Shown: one piece after another, positions 1 through 33,866 of the stretch
Position numbering within the stretch: the first letter of the stretch is position 1
How the letters are laid out: the number at the start of each line of letters is the position of its first letter
Source of the DNA: Escherichia coli
GTDB taxonomy: Bacteria > Pseudomonadota > Gammaproteobacteria > Enterobacterales > Enterobacteriaceae
NCBI RefSeq assembly: GCF_011045215.1
Contig: NZ_CP049201.1
Reading direction: 5' to 3' (one strand)
DNA: 64,000 nt
Translations under genes and position numbers: made by a program
Notes under the pieces: generated by a model
Databases searched by the model: none
The model's input: the letters and a program-made list of their open reading frames with translations, nothing else
What the model was told of the DNA's origin: nothing

Positions 1-1
1 C

Positions 2-592
2 GGTAATCCTCCGGCATTTTCCCTGACATCAGACGGGAGACTGACGGCGAAAAATGCGGATATCAGTGGCAGTGTGAATGCGAACTCAGGAACGCTCAAC
101 AATGTCACGATTAACCAGAACTGTACGATTAAGGGCATGCTGGAGGCGACCCAGGTCAGAGGAGATTTCGTTAAAGCTGTATCAAAAGCCTTCCCGAAAA
201 AAGTCGGTACGTGGGGTAACACGGAAACACCAAACGGTACGGTTACAGTCACCATCAGCGATGATCATAACTTTGACCGCCAGATTATTATTCCGCCCAT
301 TATTTTTAACGGTATAGCGTATGACGATCCGGGGAGCGGAAATAACCCAGGAGGCACGCGATACACGGGTTATGGTTTTGAAGTTCGCAAAAACGGCGTA
401 TTAATCGCATCCAGAGAAACTAAAGGGGCCATTCCCGGTAGTTACAGTGCAGTTATTGATATGCCGAGTGGCAGGGGAAGCGTCACTCTGGAGTTTAAGA
501 TTTTCCAGAAAGGCAATCAGGGGGCAGGCAATATCACCGACTGTACGGTGATTGTGACCAAAAAAGCCGCTTCCGGCATCAGTATTCGTTGA
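2..592 (+). CDS. Phage tail tip / host specificity protein J, C-terminal part (5' end lies before the window)
   Basis: The reading frame is open from position 2 to the stop at 592. It is followed by lom, stf and tfa in the canonical lambda order J-lom-stf-tfa. Confidence 0.6.
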   Translation, partial: GNPPAFSLTSDGRLTAKNADISGSVNANSGTLNNVTINQNCTIKGMLEATQVRGDFVKAVSKAFPKKVGTWGNTETPNGTVTVTISDDHNFDRQIIIPPIIFNGIAYDDPGSGNNPGGTRYTGYGFEVRKNGVLIASRETKGAIPGSYSAVIDMPSGRGSVTLEFKIFQKGNQGAGNITDCTVIVTKKAASGISIR

Positions 593-614
593 AATATTTA
601 TAACCCCAATAAAG

Positions 615-638
615 GGCGTCAGGAATGACGCCTTTTTT
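615..638 (+). terminator. Rho-independent terminator after J
   Basis: 7-bp stem GGCGTCA/TGACGCC with GGAA loop, followed by a T6 run. Confidence 0.5.
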
Positions 639-662
639 ATTGCAGAAAAGCGAGAGGTAATT

Positions 663-1262
663 ATGCGTAAAGTTTGTGCAGCAATTTTGTCCGCAGCCAT
701 TTGTCTGGCCGTATCCGGTGCGCCTGCATGGGCGTCTGAACATCAGTCCACGCTGAGCGCGGGGTATCTTCATGCCTCGACGAACGTCCCCGGCAGTGAT
801 GATCTGAACGGGATTAACGTGAAATACCGTTATGAGTTTACGGACACACTGGGGCTGGTGACGTCATTCAGCTATGCAGGAGACAAGAATCGCCAGCTGA
901 CCCGTTACAGCGATACCCGCTGGCATGAAGATTCCGTTCGTAACCGCTGGTTCAGCGTAATGGCGGGGCCGTCTGTGCGCGTAAATGAATGGTTCAGCGC
1001 GTATGCGATGGCGGGTATGGCTTACAGCCGTGTGTCGACTTTCTCCGGGGATTATCTCCGCGTAACTGACAACAAGGGGAAAACGCACGACGTGCTGACC
1101 GGAAGTGATGACGGTCGCCACAGCAACACGTCTCTGGCGTGGGGAGCTGGCGTGCAGTTTAACCCGACCGAATCCGTGGCCATTGATATTGCTTATGAAG
1201 GCTCCGGCAGTGGCGACTGGCGCACTGACGGTTTCATCGTGGGTGTCGGTTATAAGTTCTGA
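663..1262 (+). CDS. lom: Lom-like outer membrane protein (Ail/Lom/OmpX beta-barrel family)
   Basis: 199 aa with a signal peptide (MRKVCAAILSAAICLAVSGAPAWA), alternating beta-strand pattern and C-terminal aromatic residue (GVGYKF). Position between J and stf matches lambda lom. Confidence 0.8.
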   Translation: MRKVCAAILSAAICLAVSGAPAWASEHQSTLSAGYLHASTNVPGSDDLNGINVKYRYEFTDTLGLVTSFSYAGDKNRQLTRYSDTRWHEDSVRNRWFSVMAGPSVRVNEWFSAYAMAGMAYSRVSTFSGDYLRVTDNKGKTHDVLTGSDDGRHSNTSLAWGAGVQFNPTESVAIDIAYEGSGSGDWRTDGFIVGVGYKF

Positions 1263-1290
1263 TTAGCCAGGTAACACAGTGTTATGACAG

Positions 1291-1316
1291 CCCGCCTGTT
1301 CAGGCGGGCTTTTTTG
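1291..1316 (+). terminator. Rho-independent terminator after lom
   Basis: GC-rich stem GCCCGCCTG/CAGGCGGGC followed by a T6 run. Confidence 0.55.
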
Positions 1317-1326
1317 TGGGGTGAAT

Positions 1327-4300
1327 ATGGCAGTAAAGATTTCAGGTGTACTGAAAGACGGCACAGGAAAACCGGTACAGAACTGCACAATCCAGCTGAA
1401 AGCAAAACGTAACAGCACCGCGGTGGTGGTGAACACGCTGGCCTCAGAAAATCCGGATGAAGCCGGGCGTTACAGCATGGACGTTGAGTACGGTCAGTAC
1501 AGCGTTATTCTGTTGGTGGAAGGATTCCCGCCGTCACATGCCGGGACCATCACCGTGTATGAAGATTCCCGACCCGGTACGCTGAATGATTTTCTCGGTG
1601 CCATGACGGAGGATGATGCCCGTCCGGAGGCTCTGCGCCGTTTTGAACTGATGGTGGAAGAGGTGGCGCGTAACGCGTCCGCGGTGGCACAGAACACGGC
1701 AGCCGCGAAGAAGTCAGCCGGCGATGCCGGCACATCTGCCCGTGAGGCGGCAACCCATGCGACTGATGCTGCAGGCTCAGCACGCGCAGCCAGCACGTCA
1801 GCCGGACAGGCCGCTTCGTCGGCTCAGTCAGCGTCTTCCAGCGCAGGAACGGCATCAACAAAGGCCACTGAAGCATCAAAAAGTGCTGCCGCTGCAGAGT
1901 CCTCAAAAAGCGCGGCAGCTACCAGTGCCAGTGCCGCGAAAACGTCAGAAACGAATGCTGCAGCGTCACAACAATCAGCAGCCACTTCTGCATCCACCGC
2001 GACCACGAAAGCGTCAGAAGCTGCCACCTCAGCCCGGGATGCGTCGGCTTCAAAAGAGGCGGCAAAATCATCAGAAACGAACGCATCCTCGAGCGCCAGT
2101 AGCGCATCTTCCTCGGCAACAGCGGCAGGAAATTCCGCGAAGGCGGCAAAAACGTCAGAGACGAACGCCAGGTCTTCTGAAACGGCAGCGGGACAGAGCG
2201 CCTCGGCTGCGGCAGGCTCAAAAACAGCGGCTGCGTCGTCTGCCAGTGCAGCGTCAACAAGTGCCGGGCAGGCCTCAGCCAGTGCCACCGCCGCCGGAAA
2301 ATCGGCAGAAAGCGCCGCATCGTCTGCTTCAACAGCCACAACGAAGGCTGGCGAAGCCACTGAACAGGCCAGCGCAGCAGCGAGGTCTGCTTCCGCAGCG
2401 AAGACATCCGAAACGAACGCGAAAGCGTCGGAAACCAGCGCAGAATCCTCAAAAACGGCTGCCGCATCGTCAGCCAGTTCGGCGGCGTCATCGGCATCAT
2501 CGGCGTCTGCTTCAAAAGATGAGGCGACCAGACAAGCGTCAGCAGCGAAGAGCAGCGCCACGACGGCATCCACGAAGGCGACAGAGGCTGCTGGCAGTGC
2601 GACGGCGGCAGCTCAGAGCAAAAGTACGGCGGAATCCGCGGCAACGCGCGCCGAGACAGCAGCTAAACGGGCAGAGGATATTGCATCCGCCGTGGCGCTT
2701 GAGGATGCAAGTACGACGAAAAAGGGGATAGTACAGCTCAGCAGTGCGACCAACAGTACGTCTGAAACGCTGGCGGCAACGCCAAAGGCAGTAAAATCAG
2801 CCTATGACAATGCAGAGAAACGTCTGCAGAAAGACCAGAACGGCGCTGATATACCCGATAAGGGATGCTTCCTGAACAACATTAACGCGGTCAGTAAAAC
2901 AGACTTTGCTGATAAGCGTGGTATGCGTTATGTGCGGGTTAACGCTCCTGCAGGTGCAACATCTGGAAAATATTACCCTGTTGTTGTTATGCGTTCTGCT
3001 GGCTCAGTAAGCGAACTGGCATCAAGAGTCATTATCACCACGGCAACGCGAACCGCAGGCGATCCGATGAATAACTGCGAGTTTAACGGATTTGTTATGC
3101 CTGGTGGCTGGACTGACAGGGGGCGTTATGCTTATGGCATGTTCTGGCAATATCAAAACAATGAACGAGCCATTCACTCAATAATGATGAGTAATAAGGG
3201 CGATGATTTGCGCTCTGTGTTCTATGTTGATGGCGCTGCTTTCCCTGTTTTTGCGTTTATTGAAGATGGCCTGTCAATATCCGCACCTGGTGCTGATCTC
3301 GTTGTTAATGATACGACCTATAAGTTTGGGGCAACAAATCCGGCGACTGAATGTATCGCGGCGGACGTTATCCTTGATTTTAAGAGTGGGCGTGGTTTTT
3401 ATGAGTCTCATTCGTTAATCGTTAACGATAACTTGTCGTGCAAAAAACTTTTTGCCACAGACGAAATTGTAGCGCGTGGTGGTAATCAGATTCGAATGAT
3501 AGGTGGGGAGTATGGGGCATTATGGCGTAATGATGGCGCTAAAACTTACCTGCTGCTTACCAATCAAGGTGATGTTTATGGTGGCTGGAATACATTAAGA
3601 CCGTTTGCTATTGATAACGCAACCGGCGAACTGGTTATTGGAACCAAACTGTCCGCAAGTCTGAACGGTAATGCATTAACAGCAACAAAGCTGCAAACGC
3701 CAAGACGGGTTTCTGGTGTTGAGTTTGATGGTTCCAAAGATATTACTTTAACCGCCGCGCATGTGGCTGCTTTTGCCAGAAGGGCAACGGATACATATGC
3801 CGATGCGGATGGTGGCGTTCCCTGGAATGCCGAATCAGGCGCTTATAATGTCACCCGCTCTGGCGACAGCTATATTCTGGTTAACTTCTATACCGGAGTC
3901 GGAAGTTGCCGGACCCTGCAGATGAAGGCGCATTACAGAAATGGTGGTCTGTTCTACCGTTCTTCAAGAGACGGTTATGGTTTTGAGGAAGACTGGGCAG
4001 AAGTTTATACCTCGAAAAATCTTCCACCAGAAAGCTACCCAGTCGGCGCACCAATCCCGTGGCCATCAGATACCGTTCCGTCTGGTTATGCCCAGATGCA
4101 GGGGCAGACTTTTGACAAATCTGCCTACCCGAAACTTGCAGCCGCTTATCCGTCAGGCGTGATCCCTGATATGCGTGGCTGGACGATTAAGGGCAAGCCC
4201 GCCAGTGGTCGTGCCGTATTGTCTCAGGAACAGGACGGCATTAAATCGCATACCCACAGCGCCAGCGCATCCAGTACGGATTTGGGTACGAAAACCACAT

Positions 4301-4728
4301 CGTCGTTTGATTACGGAACCAAATCCACGAATAACACCGGGGCGCATACCCATAGTATTAGCGGGACTGCAAATAGTGCCGGTGCGCACCAACACAAGAG
4401 TTCCGGTGCATTTGGTGGCACGAACACGAGCATTTTTCCTAATGGTTATACTGCGATTTCAAATCCAAGCGCGGGGATTATGAGCACAACAAGCGGTACT
4501 GGCCAGACTCGTAATGCAGGGAAGACATCATCAGATGGTGCTCATACCCACTCACTGTCCGGCACTGCTGCAAGCGCAGGTGCACACGCACATACTGTCG
4601 GTATTGGTGCTCATACGCACTCCGTTGCGATTGGTTCACATGGACACACCATCACCGTTAACGCTGCTGGTAACGCGGAAAACACCGTCAAAAACATCGC
4701 ATTTAACTATATTGTGAGGCTTGCATAA
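1327..4728 (+). CDS. stf: Side tail fiber protein (Stf family)
   Basis: Long ORF whose N-terminus ([26 protein letters not shown]...) matches the prophage side-tail-fiber family. It has an Ala/Ser/Thr-rich repeat tract and C-terminal GAHTHS-type repeats. ATG at 1327 is preferred over the GTG at 1321 used by the ORF track. Confidence 0.85.
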
Positions 4729-5309
4729 TGGCATTCAGAATGAGTGAACAACCACGGACCATAAAAATTTATAATCTGCTGGCCGGAACTAATGAATTTA
4801 TTGGTGAAGGTGACGCATATATTCCACCTCATACAGGTCTGCCAGCAAACAGTACCGATATTGCACCGCCAGATATTCCGGCAGGCTTCGTGGCTGTTTT
4901 CAACAGTGATGAGGCATCGTGGCATCTTGTTGAAGACCATCGGGGTAAAACGGTTTATGACGTGGCTTCCGGCGACGCGTTATTTATTTCTGAACTCGGC
5001 TTATTACCGGAAAATGTCACCTGGTTATCCCCGGAAGGGGAGTTTCAGAAGTGGAACGGCACAGCCTGGGTGAAAGATGCAGAAGCAGAAAAACTGTTCC
5101 GGATCCGGGAGGCGGAAGAAACAAAAAACAACCTGATGCAGGTAGCCAGTGAGCATATTGCGCCACTTCAGGATGCTGTAGATCTGGAAATCGCAACGGA
5201 GGAAGAAAACTCGTTGCTGGAAGCCTGGAAGAAGTATCGGGTGTTGCTGAACCGTGTTGATACATCAACTGCACCTGATATTGAGTGGCCTGTAATACCA
5301 GAAGTTTAA
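4728..5309 (+). CDS. tfa: Tail fiber assembly protein (Tfa)
   Basis: 193 aa; its start overlaps the stf stop (TAATG). Sequence and position are typical of lambdoid Tfa chaperones. Confidence 0.8.
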
Positions 5310-5314
5310 AATAA

Positions 5315-5340
5315 AAGCCCGCTTAAAATATCGCGGGCTT
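5315..5340. terminator. Bidirectional terminator hairpin between tfa (+) and the catalase gene (-)
   Basis: Stem AAGCCCGC/GCGGGCTT. On the minus strand it is followed by a T-rich tract (complement of TTTAAAATAAAA). Confidence 0.45.
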
Positions 5341-5428
5341 CGAAATATAAATGTATTTTCAGAGGCTAGAGCTTAGGATATCTCAGCGGCAATTAACTTA
5401 TGAGGGATAGCTAAATACCAGAAGATAA

Positions 5429-6319
5429 TTAGTTTTTACTATTTATCTTTGTTTGTGGTTCTCCTTCAGCAAGCTCAGCGCCAGTGACAGGATTGATGTC
5501 TTCATGGGATTTCAACCTTGTTGCCATAGCTTTTATCATAGCTTCTTGCTTGGTCGAAAGATTTATCGAGGCCTTCCCATCCCCACCGTCAACCGCTGGA
5601 ACTGGATCGGAAATATAGTCAAAGTTTTCATCACTGTTCCAACTACCTCTGACGTCTTCACCTTCTGACATGTTGTAATATACGTTTTTGTATTTCTCAA
5701 TTGGTGGTAATTTTCCTGGTGGAAAGGTGTTGCGAATTGAATGTAATGCTTTTTCAAATGAAAGCATGTGTGCTGCTTCCCTGGTCATTAAAAATGCCAG
5801 AGTGTCTTTTACTCCAGGATCATCAGTAACATTAATGAGACGTTCGTAAATGATCTTTGCCCGAGCTTCAGCTGCAATATTTGAACGAAGATCGGCCGTG
5901 ACTTCGCCAATAGTATCAACATAAGCTGCAGTCCAGGGTACTCCAGCTGAATTAGTTAATGCTGGGCCTCCTCCGTAGAGGAGAGAAGTTATATGGCTGT
6001 CATTGCCATTTTGAGTTAAGGAACGGTAAAGCTCAGCTTCATTCTCAGTTCCTTCAGCAAGTGCTCCTTTTGCACCTTTGTTGAGCATACCAACAAGAGA
6101 ACCAATAATTTCGAGATGACTTAGTTCTTCTGTTGCTATGTCCATCAGCATATCCCTTCGGCCTGCATCTTCATCACTTAAGCCTTGAGTGAAGTATCGG
6201 CATGCTGCTGCAAGCTCACCCTGTGGCCCGCCGAATTGTTCTAAAAGTAGATTAGCCAAGCCTGGGTTTGGCTCACTTACACGTACTGTATATTGAAGTT
6301 TTTTCACGTGTCTAAACAT
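5429..6319 (-). CDS. katN: Manganese (non-haem) catalase, KatN-like
   Basis: 296-aa protein with ferritin-like di-metal catalase features, resembling Salmonella KatN. A GAGGAGG ribosome-binding site lies 6-12 nt upstream. It is the last gene of a co-directional four-gene cluster. Confidence 0.8.
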   Translation of the reverse strand: MFRHVKKLQYTVRVSEPNPGLANLLLEQFGGPQGELAAACRYFTQGLSDEDAGRRDMLMDIATEELSHLEIIGSLVGMLNKGAKGALAEGTENEAELYRSLTQNGNDSHITSLLYGGGPALTNSAGVPWTAAYVDTIGEVTADLRSNIAAEARAKIIYERLINVTDDPGVKDTLAFLMTREAAHMLSFEKALHSIRNTFPPGKLPPIEKYKNVYYNMSEGEDVRGSWNSDENFDYISDPVPAVDGGDGKASINLSTKQEAMIKAMATRLKSHEDINPVTGAELAEGEPQTKINSKN

Positions 6320-6337
6320 AATGCCTCCTCAAAAGAA

Positions 6338-6844
6338 TTATTTTTTGGCTTCAACTCCATCAATTTCAGATCTGACCATGAATTGCTCAGTGGTGTCAGG
6401 AATATGGTTAAGAAGCCATTCAGCCATTTGTTTTTCTTCATTAAGAATTGCTTCAATAATGGGTACTGAAGCTGTATCACCCGCATTTTTGGCTGCTGCG
6501 AGAAGAGATGTGTAGCACGCAATTTCAAATTGTTCGAAAACATAGCCACTGATCGAACCTTTGACAATTTCATCAGATGGAAAAATTCCACCAATGGATT
6601 GCCCAAACGCGGCCATTTTACTCATAGAGTCTTTAATGACAGAGCGCGAAATATTATTACGATCAAGTATGCTTTCAAGCTGTGAAAGCTGGTTCTTTGT
6701 TTCGCTAATGTGCTGCTCAATTCTGGAACGTAACTCTGGATAGTTTTCTATCCGGCTGGCCATAGACTCAAGCATTTTTTCAGCTTGTTTCTCCATCGCA
6801 TGTGCATCACGAAGCCAGTCATGGTAATGTTCAATTCTATTCAT
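6338..6844 (-). CDS. yciE: YciE-like ferritin-like (DUF892) stress protein
   Basis: 168 aa; resembles YciE; tightly linked upstream of the catalase gene. Confidence 0.75.
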   Translation of the reverse strand: MNRIEHYHDWLRDAHAMEKQAEKMLESMASRIENYPELRSRIEQHISETKNQLSQLESILDRNNISRSVIKDSMSKMAAFGQSIGGIFPSDEIVKGSISGYVFEQFEIACYTSLLAAAKNAGDTASVPIIEAILNEEKQMAEWLLNHIPDTTEQFMVRSEIDGVEAKK

Positions 6845-6880
6845 AATCTGTTTATCCTAAAAGAAATTGAAGTCTATAGT

Positions 6881-7387
6881 TCAGGAGTTATCCTGAGCTT
6901 TTTTATTAACGTTATTAAATGCCAGGTCTGTTAATTTGACATCAGTAGCTTTTTCCTCTTCCAGTGTTTCTTTCAGGAGTTTAGCCGCTTTTTTATATCC
7001 TAATTGCTCAGCGAGTGTTACCAAAGTGCCATAACTGGCAATTTCATAGTGCTCTACTTTTTGTGCTGCAGCAATCAATGCAGCATCACGTACTTCATTT
7101 TTATCAGTGCTTTCAATTACCTCATTCGCCTCTTCGATAAGTCCTTCCATTGCGGCACACTTAATTCTTTTCAATTTAAGACCATCTTCAGAATCAACAA
7201 TCTGATCGATGCGTTCAATTTGACCATGTGTCTCATCAAGATGTGACTGAAAAGCAGCGGTTAATTTATCACTATATGCAGAGCGACTAAGTTTAGACAG
7301 TGCCTTTGTTAGTTGTTTCTCAGCGCTGTATGTATCCGATAATAAGTGGATGAAGATATCTTCAACAGATTTAATTTGCATAATCAC
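6881..7387 (-). CDS. yciF: YciF-like ferritin-like (DUF892) stress protein
   Basis: 168 aa; YciF-like sequence; same orientation and operon context. Confidence 0.75.
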   Translation of the reverse strand: MIMQIKSVEDIFIHLLSDTYSAEKQLTKALSKLSRSAYSDKLTAAFQSHLDETHGQIERIDQIVDSEDGLKLKRIKCAAMEGLIEEANEVIESTDKNEVRDAALIAAAQKVEHYEIASYGTLVTLAEQLGYKKAAKLLKETLEEEKATDVKLTDLAFNNVNKKAQDNS

Positions 7388-7400
7388 TCCAGAGTTTTCA

Positions 7401-7422
7401 CTGCGAGCCCGTAGGCTCGCAG
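7401..7422 (-). other. Perfect 9-bp stem hairpin between the yciG-like and yciF-like genes
   Basis: CTGCGAGCC-CGTA-GGCTCGCAG. No clear U-tract follows, so it is more likely an RNA stabiliser or partial attenuator than a full terminator. Confidence 0.3.
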
Positions 7423-7459
7423 TTAGCTTCAGTTATTCACGAATGTAGGGGATGATAAA

Positions 7460-7642
7460 TTAAGAGTCAGATTTACGGCCGCCACCATGGCTATTCTGAC
7501 CACCTTTTTTCCCTGCTTCTGATGCTCTTTGTGGATCGTTTTTAAAATTACCGCCACTATGTTGGCCGCCTTTACGACCAGCGTCAGAAGCTTTTTGTCG
7601 ATCTTCAGCGAAATTACCTGCACCGCCACGATGTTCGGTCAT
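7460..7642 (-). CDS. yciG: YciG-like KGG-repeat general stress protein
   Basis: 60 aa with repeated KGG and GGNF motifs (MTEHRGGAGNFAEDRQKASDAGRKGGQHSGGNFKNDPQRASEAGKKGG...); first gene of the cluster. Confidence 0.7.
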   Translation of the reverse strand: MTEHRGGAGNFAEDRQKASDAGRKGGQHSGGNFKNDPQRASEAGKKGGQNSHGGGRKSDS

Positions 7643-7707
7643 ATCATTTCTCCTCTGATTTTCAAATTGTAAATAACATGTGCCTTGTCAGCACCCAATT
7701 AACTTTA

Positions 7708-7770
7708 GTAACAAATAAGAAAGTGTCAAATAACAGATTGGTATGCGCATTTTGATGTGACAAATAACAG
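7708..7770. promoter_or_regulatory. Putative promoter/operator region of the yciG-like operon with direct repeats
   Basis: Two near-identical 14-mers, GTGTCAAATAACAG (7723-7736) and GTGACAAATAACAG (7757-7770), plus a partial third copy ACAAATAA (7711-7718), in AT-rich DNA just upstream of the yciG-like start. Confidence 0.3.
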
Positions 7771-7872
7771 TTGTAAAAAATATGTGCTCAGTGAGTATAA
7801 TTTATTGATATCTTAGTGATTAATGGGAAGTTTAGGTTGTAACTCAAAAGATTAATATACCCAAATTTACAT

Positions 7873-8211
7873 TTATATATTATTTGATGCTCCTGGTGTT
7901 GTTTTTCTCAATAAGAATACTCTGTAAAATAATTCAATCGTAAGATGGTGGTTATTCATATTTTTGAGATACTTCCTAATAGAGTCCATCCCTTGAATAA
8001 ATAATTGTTTTAAAATTTCGTCTAACAAACTAATTACAAAAACTTTTATATAACCCAAAGAATCATGATTATTCTTAATCGTCAAGATTTGACCGTAAAA
8101 ATTTAAGCACAGAAAATTGTGTGCAAGGATGTGTTGTTCAGTCTGTCGAACTTTCGATAGTTTGAGTATTAAATGATTTCCAGCCGTTATTGATTTTACG
8201 CGTAATTCCAT
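7873..8211 (-). CDS. Hypothetical protein (AT-rich orphan ORF, may be spurious)
   Basis: 112-aa ORF in a strongly AT-rich stretch between the stress operon and ydfJ. No recognisable motif and no obvious ribosome-binding site. Confidence 0.2.
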   Translation of the reverse strand: MELRVKSITAGNHLILKLSKVRQTEQHILAHNFLCLNFYGQILTIKNNHDSLGYIKVFVISLLDEILKQLFIQGMDSIRKYLKNMNNHHLTIELFYRVFLLRKTTPGASNNI

Positions 8212-8377
8212 AAAAAACTTATCTGTTGGAGAGTTATTTGGGGCATATATGGGACAGAAATCGGCCCCAGATAGACAGTGAGATCGATCTCAGGACGCTT
8301 TTGAAAAAATGCAACTATCTGAAAAAACGTAGAAAACGCCAAGGAACCCACAGGATGTGAAAAAACACCTGTGAATT

Positions 8378-9661
8378 ATGGATTTCCAGTTATATTCGCT
8401 CGGCGCAGCGTTGGTGTTTCATGAAATATTTTTTCCTGAATCATCAACGGCAATGGCGTTAATTCTGGCAATGGGAACCTACGGTGCAGGTTATGTCGCG
8501 CGTATTGTCGGAGCATTTATTTTCGGCAAAATGGGCGACAGAATAGGGCGTAAAAAAGTGCTCTTTATTACCATCACCATGATGGGGATCTGTACCACCT
8601 TAATTGGTGTGTTACCGACCTATGCACAGATTGGTGTTTTTGCACCCATCTTGCTGGTGACGCTGCGTATTATTCAGGGATTGGGTGCAGGTGCGGAAAT
8701 TTCCGGTGCCGGTACGATGCTGGCGGAATATGCGCCAAAAGGTAAGCGCGGAATTATCTCCTCATTTGTGGCTATGGGAACTAACTGCGGAACCTTAAGC
8801 GCAACGGCAATCTGGGCCTTTATGTTCTTCATTCTCAGTAAAGAGGAACTGCTGGCGTGGGGATGGCGTATACCGTTCCTGGCGAGCGTTGTCGTGATGG
8901 TCTTTGCTATCTGGTTGCGTATGAATCTGAAAGAAAGCCCGGTCTTTGAGAAGGTTAACGACAGCAACCAACCAACAGCAAAACCTGCACCTGCTGGTAG
9001 CATGTTCCAGAGCAAATCCTTCTGGCTGGCAACAGGGCTGCGTTTTGGTCAGGCAGGTAACTCCGGATTAATTCAGACTTTCCTTGCAGGCTATTTAGTG
9101 CAGACGTTATTGTTTAACAAAGCAATTCCAACAGATGCATTGATGATCAGTTCGATTCTCGGCTTTATGACCATTCCGTTCCTTGGTTGGTTATCCGATA
9201 AAATTGGTCGCCGGATCCCGTATATTATTATGAATACCTCCGCGATTGTGCTGGCATGGCCAATGCTTTCTATCATCGTAGATAAAAGCTATGCCCCGAG
9301 CACCATTATGGTTGCACTGATTGTGATTCATAACAGTGCGGTGCTGGGATTATTTGCTCTGGAAAATATTACCATGGCAGAAATGTTTGGTTGTAAAAAC
9401 CGCTTTACCCGGATGGCTATTTCAAAAGAAATTGGTGGTCTTATCGCTTCCGGTTTTGGTCCTATCCTGGCAGGTATTTTCTGCACCATGACGGAATCCT
9501 GGTATCCGATCGCCATTATGATCATGGCATATTCAGTGATTGGTTTAATCTCTGCGCTGAAAATGCCAGAAGTGAAAGACCGTGATTTAAGTGCGCTGGA
9601 AGACGCTGCGGAAGATCAACCGCGTGTTGTAAGAGCTGCGCAACCTTCCAGAAGTCTGTAA
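8378..9661 (+). CDS. ydfJ: MFS transporter YdfJ (apparently N-terminally truncated)
   Basis: 427 aa with an MFS signature (GKMGDRIGRKK loop). The first transmembrane region expected in this family appears to be missing, consistent with a gene interrupted at a prophage junction. Confidence 0.85.
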   Translation: MDFQLYSLGAALVFHEIFFPESSTAMALILAMGTYGAGYVARIVGAFIFGKMGDRIGRKKVLFITITMMGICTTLIGVLPTYAQIGVFAPILLVTLRIIQGLGAGAEISGAGTMLAEYAPKGKRGIISSFVAMGTNCGTLSATAIWAFMFFILSKEELLAWGWRIPFLASVVVMVFAIWLRMNLKESPVFEKVNDSNQPTAKPAPAGSMFQSKSFWLATGLRFGQAGNSGLIQTFLAGYLVQTLLFNKAIPTDALMISSILGFMTIPFLGWLSDKIGRRIPYIIMNTSAIVLAWPMLSIIVDKSYAPSTIMVALIVIHNSAVLGLFALENITMAEMFGCKNRFTRMAISKEIGGLIASGFGPILAGIFCTMTESWYPIAIMIMAYSVIGLISALKMPEVKDRDLSALEDAAEDQPRVVRAAQPSRSL

Positions 9662-9669
9662 ATCCTCAA

Positions 9670-9699
9670 TCCCTTCTCTTACCGGAGAGGGGATTTTTA
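9670..9699 (+). terminator. Putative terminator after ydfJ
   Basis: Imperfect hairpin CCCTTCTCTTACCGGAGAGGGG followed by ATTTTTAT. Confidence 0.35.
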
Positions 9700-9749
9700 T
9701 CCATATAACAAAACATGTAGCTTGCCATATTTAAATTTAAGGAATTGTT

Positions 9750-11210
9750 ATGGGAAATAATTTGTTATCAGCAAAAGCGACACTCCCTGTTTATGATCGT
9801 AATAACCTGGCCCCAAGAATTGTTCATTTAGGCTTTGGTGCATTTCACCGTGCGCATCAGGGCGTGTATGCCGATATTCTTGCTACAGAACATTTCAGTG
9901 ACTGGGGATATTATGAGGTCAACTTAATCGGTGGCGAACAGCAAATTGCCGATTTACAACAGCAAGATAATCTTTATACCGTTGCGGAAATGTCGGCCGA
10001 TGCGTGGACGGCTCGCGTCGTTGGCGTCGTTAAAAAAGCCTTGCACGTACAGATAGATGGCTTAGAAACCGTGTTGGCTGCGATGTGTGAACCGCAAATC
10101 GCGATTGTCTCTCTGACAATCACCGAAAAAGGGTATTTCCACTCTCCGGCGACCGGACAGTTAATGCTCGATCACCCGATGGTCGCTGCCGACGTGCAAA
10201 ATCCCCACCAGCCGAAAACAGCAACAGGGGTGATTGTTGAGGCGCTGGCTCGCCGTAAAGCGGCAGGACTTCCCGCATTTACCGTCATGTCATGTGACAA
10301 CATGCCAGAAAACGGTCATGTTATGCGTGACGTTGTCACTTCCTACGCGCAAGCCGTTGATGTAAAACTGGCACAATGGATCGAAGATAACGTGACTTTC
10401 CCATCAACAATGGTGGACCGTATTGTGCCCGCAGTGACAGAGGATACGCTGGCGAAAATCGAACAACTTACCGGTGTGCGCGATCCTGCTGGCGTTGCCT
10501 GTGAACCTTTCCGCCAGTGGGTAATAGAAGATAATTTTGTTGCCGGACGTCCGGAATGGGAAAAAGCGGGAGCAGAACTGGTTAGCGATGTACTGCCTTA
10601 TGAAGAGATGAAGTTGCGCATGCTCAACGGCAGTCATTCATTCCTGGCGTATCTGGGTTATCTTGCCGGATATCAGCACATTAATGACTGTATGGAAGAT
10701 GAACATTATCGTCATGCGGCGTATGGCTTGATGTTGCAGGAACAAGCGCCGACGCTGAAAGTGAAGGGCGTTGATTTGCAAGATTACGCTAACCGATTAA
10801 TTGCACGCTATAGCAACCCGGCGTTACGTCATCGAACCTGGCAGATTGCGATGGATGGCAGCCAGAAATTGCCACAGCGGATGTTGGATTCTGTTCGCTG
10901 GCATCTGGCGCATGACAGCAAGTTCGATCTGCTGGCGCTGGGCGTCGCGGGTTGGATGCGTTATGTCGGTGGTGTTGATGAACAGGGAAATCCGATAGAA
11001 ATCAGTGACCCACTGTTACCTGTTATTCAGAAGGCTGTACAAAGTAGTGCCGAAGGGAAAGCGCGCGTCCAGTCATTGCTGGCGATTAAGGCGATTTTTG
11101 GTGGTGATTTGCCAGACAATAGCTTGTTTACTGCAAAAGTGACGGAAGCGTACTTGTCTTTATTAGCGCATGGCGCGAAAGCGACCGTGGCGAAATATTC
11201 CGTGAAGTAA
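9750..11210 (+). CDS. ydfI: Mannitol dehydrogenase-family oxidoreductase YdfI
   Basis: 486 aa; N-terminal Rossmann motif ([13 protein letters not shown]) typical of the mannitol/altronate dehydrogenase family. Confidence 0.85.
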
Positions 11211-11217
11211 AAAAAGC

Positions 11218-11238
11218 AATGCCGCCATCGGCGGCATT
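11218..11238. terminator. Bidirectional terminator between ydfI and ydfZ
   Basis: Stem AATGCCGCC/GGCGGCATT with a short loop, preceded by an A-run. Confidence 0.45.
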
Positions 11239-11245
11239 CACACGC

Positions 11246-11449
11246 TTAGTTCATGCCGAGACGAATCAGGTCCAGAGGTGCCAGTTTCTCTTCACAACCT
11301 TCAACAACTACGGTTTTTCCGCGGCGGATTTGCTCAGCGGTCAGACCTTCAGTATCAATCGACAGGATCTTGCCAGTGTGACCGGTGCCGCTAACCATAA
11401 CACGGCTGCCAGTGGTGATTGCGTTACGGTTACGATCGTAGGTCGTCAT
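11246..11449 (-). CDS. ydfZ: Small protein YdfZ
   Basis: 67-aa ORF ([27 protein letters not shown]...) matching YdfZ; conserved position between ydfI and rspR. Confidence 0.8.
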
Positions 11450-11625
11450 AGGTGTTTTCTCCTTTCTGATTTACAGTCGAAGCCCACGTAACGGGCGCAA
11501 TATAAATACTCCTGTCGAGTGAAATATTTTTTGTTTTTGATCAAGCTCACATCTTTTTTGATGCATGCATGAGCCATAAGGCGGGGGTAAAGACTCTCAT
11601 CCCGGATGGGATGAGAGGAAATGAA

Positions 11626-12312
11626 TTACTCTTCGCTAAACCAGTCGCTGTTTTCCTGGCGGATCTGGCGCACGGATTCGCTGATTTCCTGCAAATGTTG
11701 CGTCATTGCACGTTCTACCGCATCGCCATCACGTTTTTGCAGGGCAGAGAAAATATCAAGATGCTGGCGTAACAGCATTTCTGGTGGAGAAACATGGTCG
11801 AAACTCATATAGCGCACGCGATCAACGGTCGCTTTCAGGTTCTCAATGGTATCCCACGCCAGTTGACAGTCGGCAATCTGCGTCAGGAGTTGATGGAAGT
11901 TGTCATCAAGTTCAAAAAAATCATCCAGTTGCTTGCGCTCAATGGCAATGCGTTGCTGGTGAAGATTTTGTTCCAGTTGGTAGCACTGGCTTTCAGTAAT
12001 CATGCTCGCCGCCCGACGCGCCACCGCGCACTCAATGGCCTGACGGATAAAACTGCCGTTGCGCACCTGGGCCATGGAAATTTTGTTGACGTAGCTGCCA
12101 CGCTGCGGACGAATTTGAATCAGACCATTTTCCGCCAGTTTAATAAAGGCTTCACGAACCGGCTGGCGTGACACATTGAAACGAACAGAAACTTCTTTTT
12201 CCGACAACGGTGTGCCTGGAGCAATCAGGCAATGGACAATGTCGCGACGAAGGATACGATAAATTTGCTGATTGACAGGCTGTGTGGGATTAAGTTGCGT
12301 TTCGACGGTCAT
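11626..12312 (-). CDS. rspR: GntR/FadR-family transcriptional regulator RspR (YdfH)
   Basis: 228 aa with an N-terminal GntR helix-turn-helix and a FadR-type C-terminal domain. Confidence 0.85.
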
Positions 12313-12400
12313 TCGTTCTTGCTTGTGAGTGAGTTAACTGCATGAGTCTACCACTTTTTTGTGACAAGCAATAACCCGGCAGTTACGCCGGGTATAAAAA

Positions 12401-13147
12401 TTACTGACGGTGGACATTCAGTCCGGCATAGCTTTGGGTAACCGGCATCATTTCCAGGGTATTGATATTGACGTGAGCAGGCAGCGTTGACACCCACCAG
12501 ACGGCTTCGCTGACATCTTCTGGCGTCAATGCAACGGTATTTTGATAGGTTTTTTCCGCTTTACTGTCATCGCCTTTAAAGCGGACATTGGAAAACTCGG
12601 TGCCACCCACCAGACCCGGTTCGATGTCGGTGACGCGCACCGCCGTACCATGCAGATCCGTACGCAGATTCAGGCTAAACTGACGAACAAACGCTTTCGT
12701 CGCACCGTAAACGTTACCACCGGCATACGGCCAGCTACCTGCCGTTGAGCCAATGTTAATAATATGACCATGATTACGTTCAACCATACCCGGTAAGACG
12801 GCGCGCGTCATATATACCAGGCCTTTGTTGTTGGTATCAATCATCGTCTCCCAGTCTTCAACGTTGGCTTTATGCGCAGGCTCCATGCCCAACGCCAGGC
12901 CAGCATTGTTTACCAGGATATCAATATTGCTCCACTCGGCAGGGAGCGATGCCAGCATCTCTTCAATAGCGGCGCGGTTGCGAACGTCCAGTTGGGCGAT
13001 ATACAGATTATCTCCCAGTTCGTCTTTTAACTCCTGCAACCGTTCCTGGCGACGGCCAGTGGCGATAACTTTATGCCCTTGTTGAATAAAACGACGAGTA
13101 ATGCATTCACCAAAACCTGCCGTTGCTCCAGTTACTAAAACGATCAT
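12401..13147 (-). CDS. ydfG: NADP-dependent 3-hydroxy acid dehydrogenase YdfG (SDR family)
   Basis: SDR motifs TGATAGFG and YxxxK. Start placed at MIVLVTGA (248 aa) rather than the longer ORF-track start. Confidence 0.85.
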   Translation of the reverse strand: MIVLVTGATAGFGECITRRFIQQGHKVIATGRRQERLQELKDELGDNLYIAQLDVRNRAAIEEMLASLPAEWSNIDILVNNAGLALGMEPAHKANVEDWETMIDTNNKGLVYMTRAVLPGMVERNHGHIINIGSTAGSWPYAGGNVYGATKAFVRQFSLNLRTDLHGTAVRVTDIEPGLVGGTEFSNVRFKGDDSKAEKTYQNTVALTPEDVSEAVWWVSTLPAHVNINTLEMMPVTQSYAGLNVHRQ

Positions 13148-13283
13148 CTCACTGTTCCTCAACGCTTTTGTGTGTCAATAACATAGCACGTGATGCTTAA
13201 GAGCGGGTAATACTGGTTTGCAAGATTGCACTCCGTTATCAGTAAGCCTACGCTATGGAACACCTCGCGTTCAGGAGAAGAAA

Positions 13284-15329
13284 ATGACAACAATGAATCC
13301 TTTCCTTGTGCAAAGCACATTGCCGTATCTGGCTCCTCATTTTGATCAAATTGCCAATCATCACTATCGCCCGGCATTCGATGAGGGAATGCAGCAAAAG
13401 CGGGCAGAAATTGCTGCCATCGCGCTTAACCCGCAAACGCCTGATTTCAACAATACTATTCTGACACTGGAACAAAGCGGAGAATTACTTACCCGCGTTA
13501 CCAGCGTCTTTTTTGCGATGACTGCGGCGCATACCAATGATGAATTACAGCGTCTTGATGAACAGTTTTCCGCTGAACTGGCGGAACTGGCTAATGATAT
13601 CTATCTGAACGGTGAATTATTCGCGCGGGTAGATGCTGTCTGGCAGCGCCGTGAATCCCTGGGGCTTGATAGTGAATCCATCCGCCTGGTGGAGGTGATT
13701 CATCAACGTTTTGTCCTTGCCGGAGCCAAACTTGCGCAAGCTGATAAAGCAAAATTAAAAGTACTGAATACAGAAGCTGCGACCCTAACCAGTCAGTTTA
13801 ACCAGCGATTACTGGCAGCAAATAAATCCGGCGGTCTGGTTGTGAACGATATCGCGCAGCTGGCAGGAATGAGTGAGCAAGAGATTGTACTGGCGGCAGA
13901 GGCGGCTCGCGAGAAAGGTCTGGATAACAAATGGCTGATTCCGCTGCTGAATACCACCCAACAACCGGCGCTTGCCGAAATGCGCGATCGTGCGACGCGA
14001 GAACAACTGTTTATTGCGGGCTGGACGCGAGCGGAAAAAAGTGATGCCAATGATACCCGCGCTATCATTCAACGTCTGGTGGAGATCCGTGCACAACAGG
14101 CTACATTACTTGGTTTTCCTCATTATGCCGCATGGAAAATCGCCGATCAGATGGCAAAAACACCTGAAGCAGCGCTCAACTTTATGCGGGAAATTGTTCC
14201 AGCGGCGCGTCAACGTGCAAGCGATGAATTAGCCTCCATACAGGCGGTTATCGATAAGCAGCAGGGCGGGTTTAGCGCGCAGCCGTGGGACTGGGCATTT
14301 TATGCCGAACAGGTACGGCGGGAGAAATTTGATCTTGATGAGGCGCAGCTCAAGCCATATTTTGAATTAAACACGGTGTTGAATGAAGGTGTATTCTGGA
14401 CCGCGAATCAGCTCTTCGGTATTAAGTTTGTCGAACGTTTTGATATTCCTGTCTACCATCCTGACGTTCGGGTGTGGGAAATATTTGATCATAATGGCGT
14501 GGGGCTGGCGTTATTTTACGGTGATTTCTTCGCCCGTGATTCAAAAAGCGGCGGTGCATGGATGGGCAATTTTGTTGAGCAATCAACGCTTAATGAAACG
14601 CATCCGGTAATTTATAACGTCTGCAATTATCAGAAACCCGCTGCCGGTGAGCCTGCGTTGTTACTCTGGGATGATGTCATAACCTTATTCCATGAATTTG
14701 GTCATACGCTGCACGGCCTTTTTGCCCGCCAGCGTTATGCCACGCTCTCCGGCACCAACACGCCGCGTGATTTTGTCGAATTTCCGTCGCAAATCAACGA
14801 ACACTGGGCAACGCATCCGCAGGTATTCGCTCGCTACGCCCGGCATTATCAGAGCGGGGCAGCAATGCCTGACGAACTGCAACAGAAAATGCGTAATGCC
14901 AGCCTGTTCAACAAAGGGTATGAGATGAGCGAACTGCTTAGCGCCGCACTTCTCGATATGCGCTGGCATTGCCTGGAAGAAAACGAAGCAATGCAGGATG
15001 TCGATGATTTTGAATTGCGGGCGCTGGTGGCAGAAAATATGGATCTTCCTGCTATACCGCCACGCTATCGCAGCAGTTATTTTGCCCATATTTTTGGTGG
15101 CGGATATGCCGCAGGTTATTACGCTTATCTGTGGACGCAAATGTTGGCCGATGATGGTTACCAGTGGTTTGTTGAGCAGGGCGGATTAACGCGTGAAAAT
15201 GGGCTGCGTTTTCGCGAGGCGATCCTTTCCAGAGGTAACAGCGAAGATCTGGAACGCCTGTATCGACAATGGCGCGGTAAGGCTCCTCAGATTATGCCGA
15301 TGCTGCAACATCGTGGCTTGAACATATAA
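13284..15329 (+). CDS. dcp: Dipeptidyl carboxypeptidase II (M3 zinc metallopeptidase)
   Basis: HEFGH zinc-binding motif; start at MTTMNPF with an upstream AGGAGAAG ribosome-binding site. Confidence 0.9.
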   Translation: MTTMNPFLVQSTLPYLAPHFDQIANHHYRPAFDEGMQQKRAEIAAIALNPQTPDFNNTILTLEQSGELLTRVTSVFFAMTAAHTNDELQRLDEQFSAELAELANDIYLNGELFARVDAVWQRRESLGLDSESIRLVEVIHQRFVLAGAKLAQADKAKLKVLNTEAATLTSQFNQRLLAANKSGGLVVNDIAQLAGMSEQEIVLAAEAAREKGLDNKWLIPLLNTTQQPALAEMRDRATREQLFIAGWTRAEKSDANDTRAIIQRLVEIRAQQATLLGFPHYAAWKIADQMAKTPEAALNFMREIVPAARQRASDELASIQAVIDKQQGGFSAQPWDWAFYAEQVRREKFDLDEAQLKPYFELNTVLNEGVFWTANQLFGIKFVERFDIPVYHPDVRVWEIFDHNGVGLALFYGDFFARDSKSGGAWMGNFVEQSTLNETHPVIYNVCNYQKPAAGEPALLLWDDVITLFHEFGHTLHGLFARQRYATLSGTNTPRDFVEFPSQINEHWATHPQVFARYARHYQSGAAMPDELQQKMRNASLFNKGYEMSELLSAALLDMRWHCLEENEAMQDVDDFELRALVAENMDLPAIPPRYRSSYFAHIFGGGYAAGYYAYLWTQMLADDGYQWFVEQGGLTRENGLRFREAILSRGNSEDLERLYRQWRGKAPQIMPMLQHRGLNI

Positions 15330-15373
15330 ACACCACCAATGGCTGTCCTGGAGATATCGCCAGGCCAGCCTGG

Positions 15374-15892
15374 TTATAGCAGTAACTGCAGCAGCTGGGC
15401 GAGGGCAAACCTCACCGCTAAAGCTAATACCGTTTCGCAGTCGCCAGCAAAATGCATAACCGCAGTGTAGTTCTGGCCTTTAATATGCCACGCGAACCAG
15501 ACGGTACCCGCTGGCGTACCATCTTCACCGCCCTCCGGTCCGCCGTAGCCGGTAATGGCAATACTGACATCAGCATCCGCACGCTCTATGGCACCGGTTG
15601 CCATTTCTGCTGCCACTTTCTCACTCACCGCAGAATATCGTTCAAGAGATTGCTGGCTTACGCTGAGGATTTTCATCTTTGCCTGATCGGTGAAAGTAAC
15701 AAATCCTGCACCGTAAAATTTGGGTGTATCTTCAGCTGCACACAGGGCGCTAGCCAACTTACCGCCGGTGCATGATTCGGCGGTAGTTAAGCGTAATTGA
15801 TCCGCGATAAGTCTTTGACTCAACGCGGATGTCAGGTTTTCAATAGTGTCGGTATCTGCAAGTTGTACAATTTTATTTCTATTAATGTTCAC
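15374..15892 (-). CDS. ydeJ: CinA-like C-terminal domain protein YdeJ
   Basis: 172 aa; CinA/PncC-like sequence. Confidence 0.8.
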   Translation of the reverse strand: MNINRNKIVQLADTDTIENLTSALSQRLIADQLRLTTAESCTGGKLASALCAAEDTPKFYGAGFVTFTDQAKMKILSVSQQSLERYSAVSEKVAAEMATGAIERADADVSIAITGYGGPEGGEDGTPAGTVWFAWHIKGQNYTAVMHFAGDCETVLALAVRFALAQLLQLLL

Positions 15893-16167
15893 TGTTTTTT
15901 GTCCACGCTTTTATATGTAAAGGTGATTTGCTTTTTCTGTATGCTCGTCCAATATAATAATTTCCAAACATATAAATCCGATTATTCTGAAAATATGTTT
16001 AAGACTTTTCAATCTTCTTAACTTTAGTGAGTTAAATTCTCTGAATATTTGACAGCTAGTTGGCTGATTTTAAATGCCTTATAACAATTGGCAGTATTCT
16101 TATTTGGCAATTATAAAAATAGCAACCAGACTTAATAAGTCAAACCAAACGCAATTAAGGAGTTAGT

Positions 16168-16560
16168 ATGAAATTTCAGGCCATTGTATTAGCAAGTTTT
16201 CTTGTCATGCCTTATGCGTTGGCAGATGACCAGGGCGGTTTAAAACAGGATGCAGCGCCACCGCCGCCTCATGCAATAGAAGATGGCTATCGCGGCACCG
16301 ATGATGCAAAAAAAATGACCGTTGATTTCGCAAAAACCATGCACGATGGCGCTTCGGTTTCACTACGCGGTAATTTGATTTCTCACAAAGGAGAGGACCG
16401 TTACGTTTTTCGCGATAAGAGCGGTGAAATTAATGTTGTTATTCCTGCGGCCGTCTTTGATGGACGAGAAGTTCAGCCGGACCAGATGATCAACATTAGC
16501 GGCAGTCTCGATAAGAAAAGCGCGCCGGCCGTCGTTCGGGTCACTCATTTGCAGAAATAA
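16168..16560 (+). CDS. ydeI: Periplasmic OB-fold (YgiW/BOF family) stress protein YdeI
   Basis: 130 aa with a signal peptide; YgiW-family sequence. Confidence 0.8.
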
Positions 16561-16814
16561 AAATAAATTAGCCTGATGGCCTGAACTACTGGGCCATTAG
16601 GGTATTGGGTTATGCTATTTGTCATCCTTTTATTTACGATAATGCAGAGGTAATTTACAGAATTAAACACTTTTTTATCCGCTGATTTTGTTTTAAATCA
16701 CAATGTTATCTCAGAAATGACTCATAACTTCGGATTTCTATGAAAATATTGACGTAATTTTGCTTTTCTCTCGTTAGAATAGCGCACACAAGGAACTGTG
16801 AAAAAGGAGTGGCA

Positions 16815-17705
16815 ATGATCAAGAAGACAACGGAAATTGATGCCATCTTGTTAAATCTCAATAAGGCTATCGATGCCCACTACCAGTGGCTGGTGAGTAT
16901 GTTTCACAGCGTGGTCGCGAGAGATGCCAGTAAGCCAGAAATAACGGATAACCATTCTTATGGACTGTGCCAGTTTGGTCGGTGGATTGATCATCTGGGG
17001 CCACTCGATAACGATGAATTACCTTACGTTCGGCTAATGGATTCTGCCCATCAACATATGCATAACTGTGGTCGGGAATTAATGCTGGCTATTGTTGAAA
17101 ATCACTGGCAGGACGCGCATTTCGACGCCTTTCAGGAGGGGTTGCTTTCTTTTACTGCGGCATTAACCGATTACAAAATTTATTTGCTGACGATCCGTAG
17201 CAATATGGATGTTTTGACGGGATTGCCGGGTCGTCGGGTTCTTGATGAATCCTTTGATCATCAGTTACGCAACGCTGAGCCTCTGAATCTTTATTTAATG
17301 TTGTTGGATATTGACCGATTTAAATTGGTTAATGATACCTACGGGCATTTAATCGGCGATGTAGTATTACGCACCCTGGCAACTTACTTAGCCAGTTGGA
17401 CGCGTGATTACGAAACGGTTTATCGCTACGGGGGCGAAGAATTTATCATTATTGTCAAAGCGGCTAATGATGAAGAAGCATGTCGTGCAGGTGTCAGAAT
17501 TTGCCAGTTAGTCGATAACCATGCCATCACACATTCTGAAGGGCATATCAACATTACCGTGACAGCAGGTGTCAGTCGCGCATTTCCTGAAGAGCCTCTG
17601 GATGTGGTCATTGGAAGAGCAGACCGGGCAATGTATGAGGGTAAGCAAACCGGAAGAAATCGCTGCATGTTTATTGACGAACAAAATGTGATTAACCGAG
17701 TTTAA
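16815..17705 (+). CDS. dgcZ: Zinc-sensing diguanylate cyclase DgcZ (YdeH)
   Basis: N-terminal zinc-binding (CZB) domain and C-terminal GGDEF domain (RYGGEEF); ribosome-binding site AAGGAG; start at MIKKTTEID. Confidence 0.85.
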   Translation: MIKKTTEIDAILLNLNKAIDAHYQWLVSMFHSVVARDASKPEITDNHSYGLCQFGRWIDHLGPLDNDELPYVRLMDSAHQHMHNCGRELMLAIVENHWQDAHFDAFQEGLLSFTAALTDYKIYLLTIRSNMDVLTGLPGRRVLDESFDHQLRNAEPLNLYLMLLDIDRFKLVNDTYGHLIGDVVLRTLATYLASWTRDYETVYRYGGEEFIIIVKAANDEEACRAGVRICQLVDNHAITHSEGHINITVTAGVSRAFPEEPLDVVIGRADRAMYEGKQTGRNRCMFIDEQNVINRV

Positions 17706-17820
17706 GCTCCGTTTAACATTCATTGAGAAAACTGATGCTACTGTGTCAACGATCCGTTATCAGTGCAGGAAAATGCCTGTTAGCGTAAAAGCAAAACACA
17801 AATCTATCCATGCAAGCATT

Positions 17821-17849
17821 CACCGCCGGTTTACTGGCGGTTTTTTTTT
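17821..17849 (+). terminator. Rho-independent terminator after dgcZ
   Basis: Stem CCGCC...GGCGG followed by a T9 run. Confidence 0.5.
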
Positions 17850-17924
17850 CGCCGTCATAAAAATCAGGCCCCTTGTACACAACTGTAACAAGGGGCCGGT
17901 TAGGTGAGGGATTATCTCCGTTCA

Positions 17925-18020
17925 TTAGTCATCCCATTTGTGGCTGAAATACGCGGCCAGAAAACCAGAAAATAAAATTATTCCCAGTACGGCCATAAAA
18001 ACATTCATATTACCCAGCAT
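17925..18020 (-). CDS. mgtS: Small membrane protein MgtS (YneM)
   Basis: Minus-strand translation gives MLGNMNVFMAVLGIILFSGFLAAYFSHKWDD (31 aa), matching MgtS. Too short to appear in the ORF track. Confidence 0.7.
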   Translation of the reverse strand: MLGNMNVFMAVLGIILFSGFLAAYFSHKWDD

Positions 18021-33810: not shown

Positions 33811-33866
33811 TTTTTTACTCCCGTCAGCGCGTTACCCCAATTGTAGATAAAATTGATAAATTCGCC

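Follow-up and report, generated by a model that had tools for sequence, protein, structure and literature searches.

Where does a prophage end and the bacterial chromosome resume, and what has become of the gene at the join? This question is raised by positions 7643-8377 of a 64,000-nucleotide stretch of Escherichia coli DNA (hereafter the window), where phage tail-fibre genes and a group of stress genes give way to strongly AT-rich DNA and then to a ydfJ transporter gene that appears to lack its beginning. The initial annotation read this zone as a prophage-chromosome boundary created by integration into ydfJ. Our analysis supports that interpretation. In the best reading, to which we assign a probability of about 0.93, positions 7643-8386 are the attR of a lambda-like prophage of about 45 kb, inserted site-specifically in ydfJ.

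A truncated ydfJ

The gene to the right of the AT-rich stretch, ydfJ' (8378..9661, plus strand), encodes a 427-aa MHS-family MFS transporter that, by comparison with intact YdfJ, is without codons 1-28. In strain PI6, where the gene is uninterrupted, YdfJ has 455 aa (L001:5924-7291), and the protein in the window matches residues 29-455 of it with a single substitution; its ATG is therefore the native Met29 codon. The truncation proposed initially thus stands when tested against the length of an intact gene, which is 455 and not 427 codons. The 28 residues lost are MTIEKHERSTKDLVKAAVSGWLGTALEF. They had been described as about one transmembrane helix, which is roughly right in extent; hydropathy places the actual loss in the cytoplasmic N-terminal tail and roughly the first half of the first transmembrane helix (TM1). 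The sequence that is left retains the MFS fold signature (Pfam MFS_1, E=8.9e-37; Sugar_tr, E=1.2e-24), and neither match covers the beginning of its profile, the first aligned positions being 33 and 47, respectively, so that the N-terminus must be missing. A full-length protein would have all 455 residues with a complete N-terminus and TM1, and this one, at 427 aa and with residues 1-28 absent, does not. The PGAP pipeline labels the same reading frame "incomplete; missing N-terminus" in every interrupted genome that we fetched (100181, 55989, 200088, and a K-12-like strain). Inspection of the sequence ahead of the ydfJ' ATG revealed no visible Shine-Dalgarno motif. An upstream start codon supplied by the phage was considered and is ruled out by an in-frame TGA at 8372-8374.

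The order of genes at the uninterrupted locus of PI6 is rspA, rspB, ydfJ (455 aa), ydfI, ydfZ, rspR, ydfG, and dcp, with ydfJ starting 57 bp after rspB in uninterrupted strains. In the window, ydfI (9750..11210, plus strand), annotated as a member of the mannitol dehydrogenase family, follows ydfJ' and has been separated from rspAB along with it.

The crossover core and the attachment sites

We performed a four-way alignment of attB from PI6, attP from the free phage HannyBb, attL from 100181, and attR from the window. The four share just one stretch, the 11-bp sequence TTATGGATTTC (8376..8386, without strand assignment), which marks the crossover region and the exact boundary between prophage and chromosome. 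The attR of the window consists of the P arm of HannyBb followed by the right half of attB, so that after TTATGGATTTC the window reads as ydfJ, while attL is the reciprocal product, in which the left half of attB runs into the P' arm of the same phage. All four sites therefore share one short core, with the arms recombined as B-O-P' and P-O-B'. The Met29 ATG of ydfJ' falls inside the core. The AT-rich zone as a whole had been proposed as the boundary; the boundary is indeed here, but it is a point at 8376-8386 and not a zone of 730 bp, and the alignment places it within 11 bp. With one mismatch tolerated, the core lengthens to TTATGGATTTC[A/C]AG, and the overlaps of split pieces in BLAST searches are 19 bp, matching the 18-19-bp att reported previously (PMC8112680). 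The 11-bp perfect core and the published 18-19 bp differ in how imperfect matches on the flanks are treated.

Several further observations support this reading. The attP match in HannyBb lies in the middle of the phage genome, directly upstream of the integrase and excisionase genes, and the integrase beside attP in HannyBb is 99% identical to that beside attL in 100181. Joining attL and attR at the core in silico rebuilds the wild-type 5' end of ydfJ with one synonymous difference, and hence rebuilds attB. The attR junction string, ACACCTGTGAATTATGGATTTCCAGTTATATTC, is identical in five fetched genomes.

The site is also a common one. A megablast search of 5,426 complete E. coli genomes identified the right-hand gene as ydfJ. 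Of these genomes, 2,009 have an uninterrupted attB and 2,709, about half, have the ydfJ attL junction in one piece. Genomes sampled in the attB survey in which the site is split are broken at an identical position. Few lambdoid insertion sites in E. coli are used as heavily as ydfJ.

The displaced 5' end of ydfJ

The window does not reach the far end of its prophage, and attL was read in the close relatives 100181 and 55989. Strain 100181 is collinear with window positions 1-17699 at 98.8% identity and is identical over 7400-8377. In both genomes, an 84-nt fragment of the ydfJ 5' end, together with the core, sits between rspB and a tyrosine integrase/excisionase pair. Each contains attL and attR as exact strings, 44.9 kb apart in 100181 and 45.7 kb apart in 55989, and the element that they bound has a complete lambdoid gene set, comprising int, xis, exo, dicB, cI/cro-like genes, Q, lysis, terminase, head, and tail genes, J, lom, stf, and tfa. 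The same arrangement, with the string GCGCTTGAATTTATGGATTTCAAGAGTCATGCG beside int and rspB, would be expected at the far end of the prophage in the genome of the window. A search of the window for the 5' fragment, allowing up to 3 mismatches, did not find it, as expected from the orientation of the prophage. An att repeat at the other prophage end, which the initial annotation had made a test of its proposal, is thus present in 100181 and 55989. Its statement that integration removed the ydfJ 5' end needs correction; in these two strains the 5' end has been displaced by about 45 kb and now adjoins xis/int and rspB.

In principle, the ydfJ 5' end might instead have been lost by deletion or illegitimate recombination as a prophage decayed, leaving no fragment at the other end. 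The location of that end beyond the window is compatible with such a loss, as is the existence of decayed prophages at the ydfJ site, including Qin of K-12 with its truncated tail gene. However, the break lies exactly at the core shared by attP and attB, 100181 and 55989 keep the 84-nt fragment and core beside int, and the junction string is the same in all five fetched genomes. We regard a deletion as very unlikely on these grounds and favor site-specific integration.

The two relatives have some irregularities of their own. In the 100181 prophage, the annotation marks the exonuclease gene as frameshifted (L004:41313-43783); otherwise this prophage looks complete and has four tRNA genes ahead of its lysis genes. 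In 55989, the rspB gene beside attL is split by an IS4-like ISVsa5 element (L011:46974-49331). Strain 100181 also carries a 1.75-kb IS200/IS605 tnpA'-tnpB insertion between lsrG and tam (L010:28820-30565) that the window is without (at 33855). In the window, hipA lacks about 730 bp of internal sequence that 100181 has (L010:12891-13620; window 48966-49557, junction at 49055). What is left of hipA forms two ORFs, at 48909-49115 and 49048-49557, beside an intact hipB (48682-48966), so that this strain probably has no active HipA toxin gene.

Composition and modules of the AT-rich stretch

Positions 7643-8377 have a G+C content of 31.7%, compared with 47.4% for the whole window, and form the minimum among all 735-bp windows sampled every 25 bp, which bears out the strong AT-richness noted at the outset. 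The value falls to 27.8% over 7643-8113. The 733 bp to the left of the core (7643-8375) are entirely prophage DNA and are made up of three pieces.

The first piece (7643..8151, minus strand, 28% G+C) is the AT-rich region upstream of the katN stress cassette, with a putative regulatory role. Alignment with other prophages shows that DNA from 7643 to about 8151 moves with the cassette, as it lies upstream of the same KGG gene in prophages at zinT and prfC and in CP-933X of O157, and the 130 bp closest to that gene are almost invariant across prophages. The second piece is a 56-bp block (8152..8207, no strand assigned) that aligns among lambdoid prophages of different integration sites (ydfJ, zinT, and prfC). 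Homology to Qin and to free phages begins at 8152, and the block is probably the point of exchange between cargo and integration modules. The third piece (8208..8375, 168 bp, no strand assigned) is an attP P arm specific to the ydfJ-integrating phages Qin, mEp460, Tritos, and HannyBb. It is 90-95% identical to K-12 Qin and the free phages, and in free phages it lies directly upstream of the core and int.

Short repeated motifs in the P arm suggest where an integrase might bind. TGGGGCA at 8239..8245 (plus strand) is a candidate arm-type integrase-binding site that is repeated in both arms; TGGGGCC, a related candidate copy, lies on the opposite strand at 8263..8269, and the P' arm of attL/attP has two further copies of TGGGGCA, at +70 and +81. 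The 315-bp reconstructed attP holds four copies of TGGGGCA/TGGGGCC, against 0.023 expected in shuffled sequences, for a motif that was chosen after inspecting the sequence. The copies lie at identical positions in HannyBb. These post hoc motifs may be arm-type sites. Separately, an inverted repeat, CACAGG-N13-CCTGTG, lies at 8346-8374, directly left of the core, is conserved in Qin and HannyBb, and may serve the att region as a binding site for a protein.

We observed no known RNA family in 7300-8600, where a permissive Rfam scan returned two chance-level matches, snoR113 (E=0.22) and mir-263 (E=0.53), the latter falling at the inverted repeat at 8346-8374. A scan of the whole window at the Rfam gathering threshold yielded nothing within the AT-rich region. 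Elsewhere, Rfam matches were obtained to IS009 (227.6 bits; 5071-5269, plus strand), within the 3' part of the tail-fibre assembly gene, and to the Hfq-binding sRNA STnc560 (277.5 bits; 17717-17931, plus strand), just upstream of ydeI.

Positions 7643-8375 show zero differences from 100181, against 6-19 per kb in the coding DNA to either side. The junction between cassette and P arm may be of recent origin. A recent independent arrival of the phage was also considered and rejected: the prophage side differs from 100181 by 6-19 per kb and the chromosomal side by 8.5-14 per kb, so the prophage part is not much more similar.

Stress genes as phage cargo

The last structural gene of the prophage ahead of its cargo is the tail-fibre assembly gene tfa (4728..5309, plus strand; Pfam Caudo_TAP, E=3e-44; tfaQ in 100181), which, with an ORF for a 1135-aa tail fibre, precedes a leftward four-gene operon on the minus strand. 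The first gene of this operon (7460..7642) encodes a YciG-like KGG-repeat/con-10 general stress protein of 60 aa (Pfam KGG, E=1.1e-16) and has a GGAG ribosome-binding site. It is followed by two genes for DUF892 ferritin-like proteins resembling YciE/YciF, one at 6881..7387 (E=3.1e-54), for which PGAP sets the start 6 bases further in, and one at 6338..6844 (E=1.2e-50). The last gene (5429..6319) encodes a KatN-like manganese catalase (Pfam Mn_catalase, E=9.6e-87), the EHEC homologue of which is katN (PMC5363993). A KGG gene, two DUF892 genes, and a manganese catalase gene on one strand, in the same order as in the O157 copy, constitute the yciGFE-katN gene set. As initially noted, no integrase or invertase is encoded between the tail-fibre genes and ydfJ, judging from the ORFs and Pfam; an invertase is found at this end in Qin and HannyBb, and the stress cassette stands in its place here.

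The cassette and its upstream region recur after the tail-fibre genes of prophages at zinT and prfC and of O157 CP-933X. Among the 5,426 genomes, 381 carry the cassette, nearly all at 99% identity or more, and five, including 55989, have the direct junction of the katN cassette with a ydfJ-type P arm. This abutment is the only local peculiarity and is ordinary lambdoid mosaicism.

It could be argued that the stress genes and AT-rich DNA form an independent island with boundaries of its own, the prophage ending near 5310, and the initial annotation did speak of a stress island. The cassette is a discrete module with a G+C content of 38-45%, lower than that of its neighbors, and its occurrence in only 381 genomes, with the exact P-arm junction in only five, would suit an independent element. 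Its position argues otherwise: a phage P arm lies between the cassette and ydfJ, which puts the cassette inside the att-bounded element. In addition, prophages at unrelated sites carry it in the same slot, after tfa and before the att end, and neither the ORFs nor Pfam revealed a mobility gene or flanking repeat of its own. A separate island is thus highly improbable, and the stress genes are better described as cargo within the prophage.

In EHEC, katN requires RpoS and OxyR for its transcription, which deletion of hns raises more than 450-fold (PMC5363993). Since the cassette corresponds to this H-NS-repressed operon, the AT-rich DNA is, by analogy, most likely the control region through which H-NS silences the stress operon and RpoS/OxyR activate it. 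What is seen here of katN-type regulation is the AT-richness itself and a set of conserved promoter-like boxes. A consensus scan identified TTGACA-16-TAAAGT (7702..7729, minus strand), matching at 10 of 12 positions and lying about 60 nt upstream of the KGG gene, as a candidate promoter, and a sequence scan found a TATACT box further upstream (7794-7799, minus strand). Promoter-like sites in the AT-rich DNA are not above chance, with five found against 4.2 expected in shuffled sequence. The count of sites thus carries no weight, and TTGACA-16-TAAAGT is kept as a candidate because its hexamers are conserved in other prophages: across four prophages, the -35 hexamer is invariant and the -10 hexamer has one variable position (TA[A/G]AGT).

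The 112-aa reading frame

Only one ORF of at least 60 aa lies wholly inside the AT-rich stretch, a 112-aa frame at 7873..8211 on the minus strand. If this were a real phage cargo gene, the AT-rich DNA would be mainly coding. PGAP does call it in 200088, as hypothetical protein WP_032300779.1, and 31 near-identical sequences of 109-112 aa exist in the protein collection. The same pipeline makes no call in 100181 or 55989, however, and the frame has no Pfam match. A search of 5.8 billion proteins returned only 11 matches, all from E. coli and all at least 82% identical, and nine of the 11 are cut to 65-71 aa. The frame also crosses the module boundary at about 8152, so that it spans two modules of different origin. 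Its O157 copy carries frame-breaking indels of 1, 4, 3, and 1 bases, and the substitutions between the two fall 20/18/28 by codon position, with no third-position excess. The ORF thus has neither homologues beyond near-identical copies nor a frame that is kept in diverged copies, and it looks spurious; that it encodes a genuine cargo protein has very little probability. The ORF list, the lack of a Pfam family, and the restriction to near-identical matches agree with the initial view that the stretch holds only a doubtful 112-aa ORF. A shorter ORF of 51 aa in the same stretch (8196-8351) has no Pfam family match either.

Integration model and likely consequences for ydfJ

Taken together, these comparisons suggest the following sequence of events. 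A tyrosine integrase recombined a phage attP, made up of P arm, core, and P' arm, with the attB in codons 28-32 of ydfJ, the crossover occurring within the 11-bp core TTATGGATTTC at 8376-8386. To the left of the core lie, in order, the tail-fibre genes, the leftward four-gene stress operon, its AT-rich upstream region, the 56-bp block, and the 168-bp P arm, and to the right ydfJ from Met29 on. The first 28 codons of ydfJ and the upstream rspAB would be carried to the other end of the prophage, beside int/xis, which leaves ydfJ'-ydfI without their 5' end and cut off from their former transcription context. An intact ydfJ would be restored if the prophage excised precisely. What makes the stretch so AT-rich is horizontally acquired phage cargo, to which the P arm would add a binding region for recombination proteins.

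Integration would cost YdfJ part of TM1, and with about 45 kb inserted between rspB and ydfJ', the ydfJ'-ydfI pair would lose any transcription from rspAB. The interrupted copies of ydfJ' in the window, 100181, and the K-12-like strain have a clean frame of 427 codons, with no stop codons or frameshifts, and differ among themselves and from the uninterrupted allele at 13-20 nt but at only 0-3 aa, the comparison with an uninterrupted allele alone giving 0-2 aa. These clean frames and few amino acid changes, along with a precise excision that would restore the gene, have led us to consider that rspAB-ydfJ-ydfI might be switched reversibly by the prophage ("active lysogeny"), or that YdfJ' started at Met29 might be functional. 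We consider this very unlikely. Clean frames do not separate present from past selection, and the pattern could equally be explained by selection before integration or by recombination with uninterrupted alleles.

Comparison with known systems

Prophage insertion in ydfJ is already known and ordinary, at the same well-documented site as that of Qin in K-12. A published account describes how site-specific insertion of Qin at the ydfJ 5' end cost the gene its promoter and 28 N-terminal codons (PMC6379469), and a study of ydfJ prophages defined an 18-19-bp att (S7 Fig) and found ydfJ occupied in many strains, including K-12 (PMC8112680). Because both the 28-codon truncation and the att sequence were already published, the arrangement described here is a correct rediscovery. 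It matters little beyond correct annotation, in that ydfJ is a split gene and not a naturally short transporter, and in that the stress operon and its AT-rich control region appear as phage cargo.

The prophage in the window resembles the cryptic prophage Qin (Kim) of K-12 in its integration site, its attR string ACACCTGTGAATTATGGATTTCCAGTTATATTC, and its 28-codon truncation, and the P arms of the two are 93-95% identical from 8152 on. Qin, in contrast, is a decayed remnant with ynfT, ydfK, the invertase gene pinQ, and a truncated tail-fibre gene at its right end, where the window has the stress cassette, and in close relatives of the window the prophage is a full lambdoid genome of 45 kb in which int and xis are intact. 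The ydfJ-integrating phages, comprising PPydfJ of STEC and the free phages mEp460, Tritos, HannyBb, and PhiR42_1, share the P arm at about 90% identity and the same core (PMC8112680). The integrase of the 100181 prophage likewise belongs with that of these phages (99% identity to HannyBb). The cargo beside the P arm differs among them: HannyBb has an invertase together with small ORFs, the STEC prophages have effector genes, and the prophage here has the stress cassette.

In phage lambda, the order is tail genes and b-region, P arm, core, P' arm, int, and xis, and attB lies between gal and bio. A textbook comparison with lambda attP/attR shows the same order of elements here, an AT-rich P arm of about 160-170 bp, and short motifs repeated in both arms. 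The ydfJ site differs in having another core sequence and an attB inside a gene, and its arm sites are candidates.

The stress cassette itself has the same four genes in the same order as the katN operon of EHEC EDL933 (z1921-z1924, CP-933X) and yciGFE-katN of Salmonella. Its coding DNA is at least 99% identical to that of the O157 copy, and the upstream DNA aligns over window 7300-8113 at about 89%. In O157, the next features after the operon are a methyltransferase gene and IS elements, whereas the cassette in the window is carried on a prophage at the ydfJ site and abuts the phage P arm.
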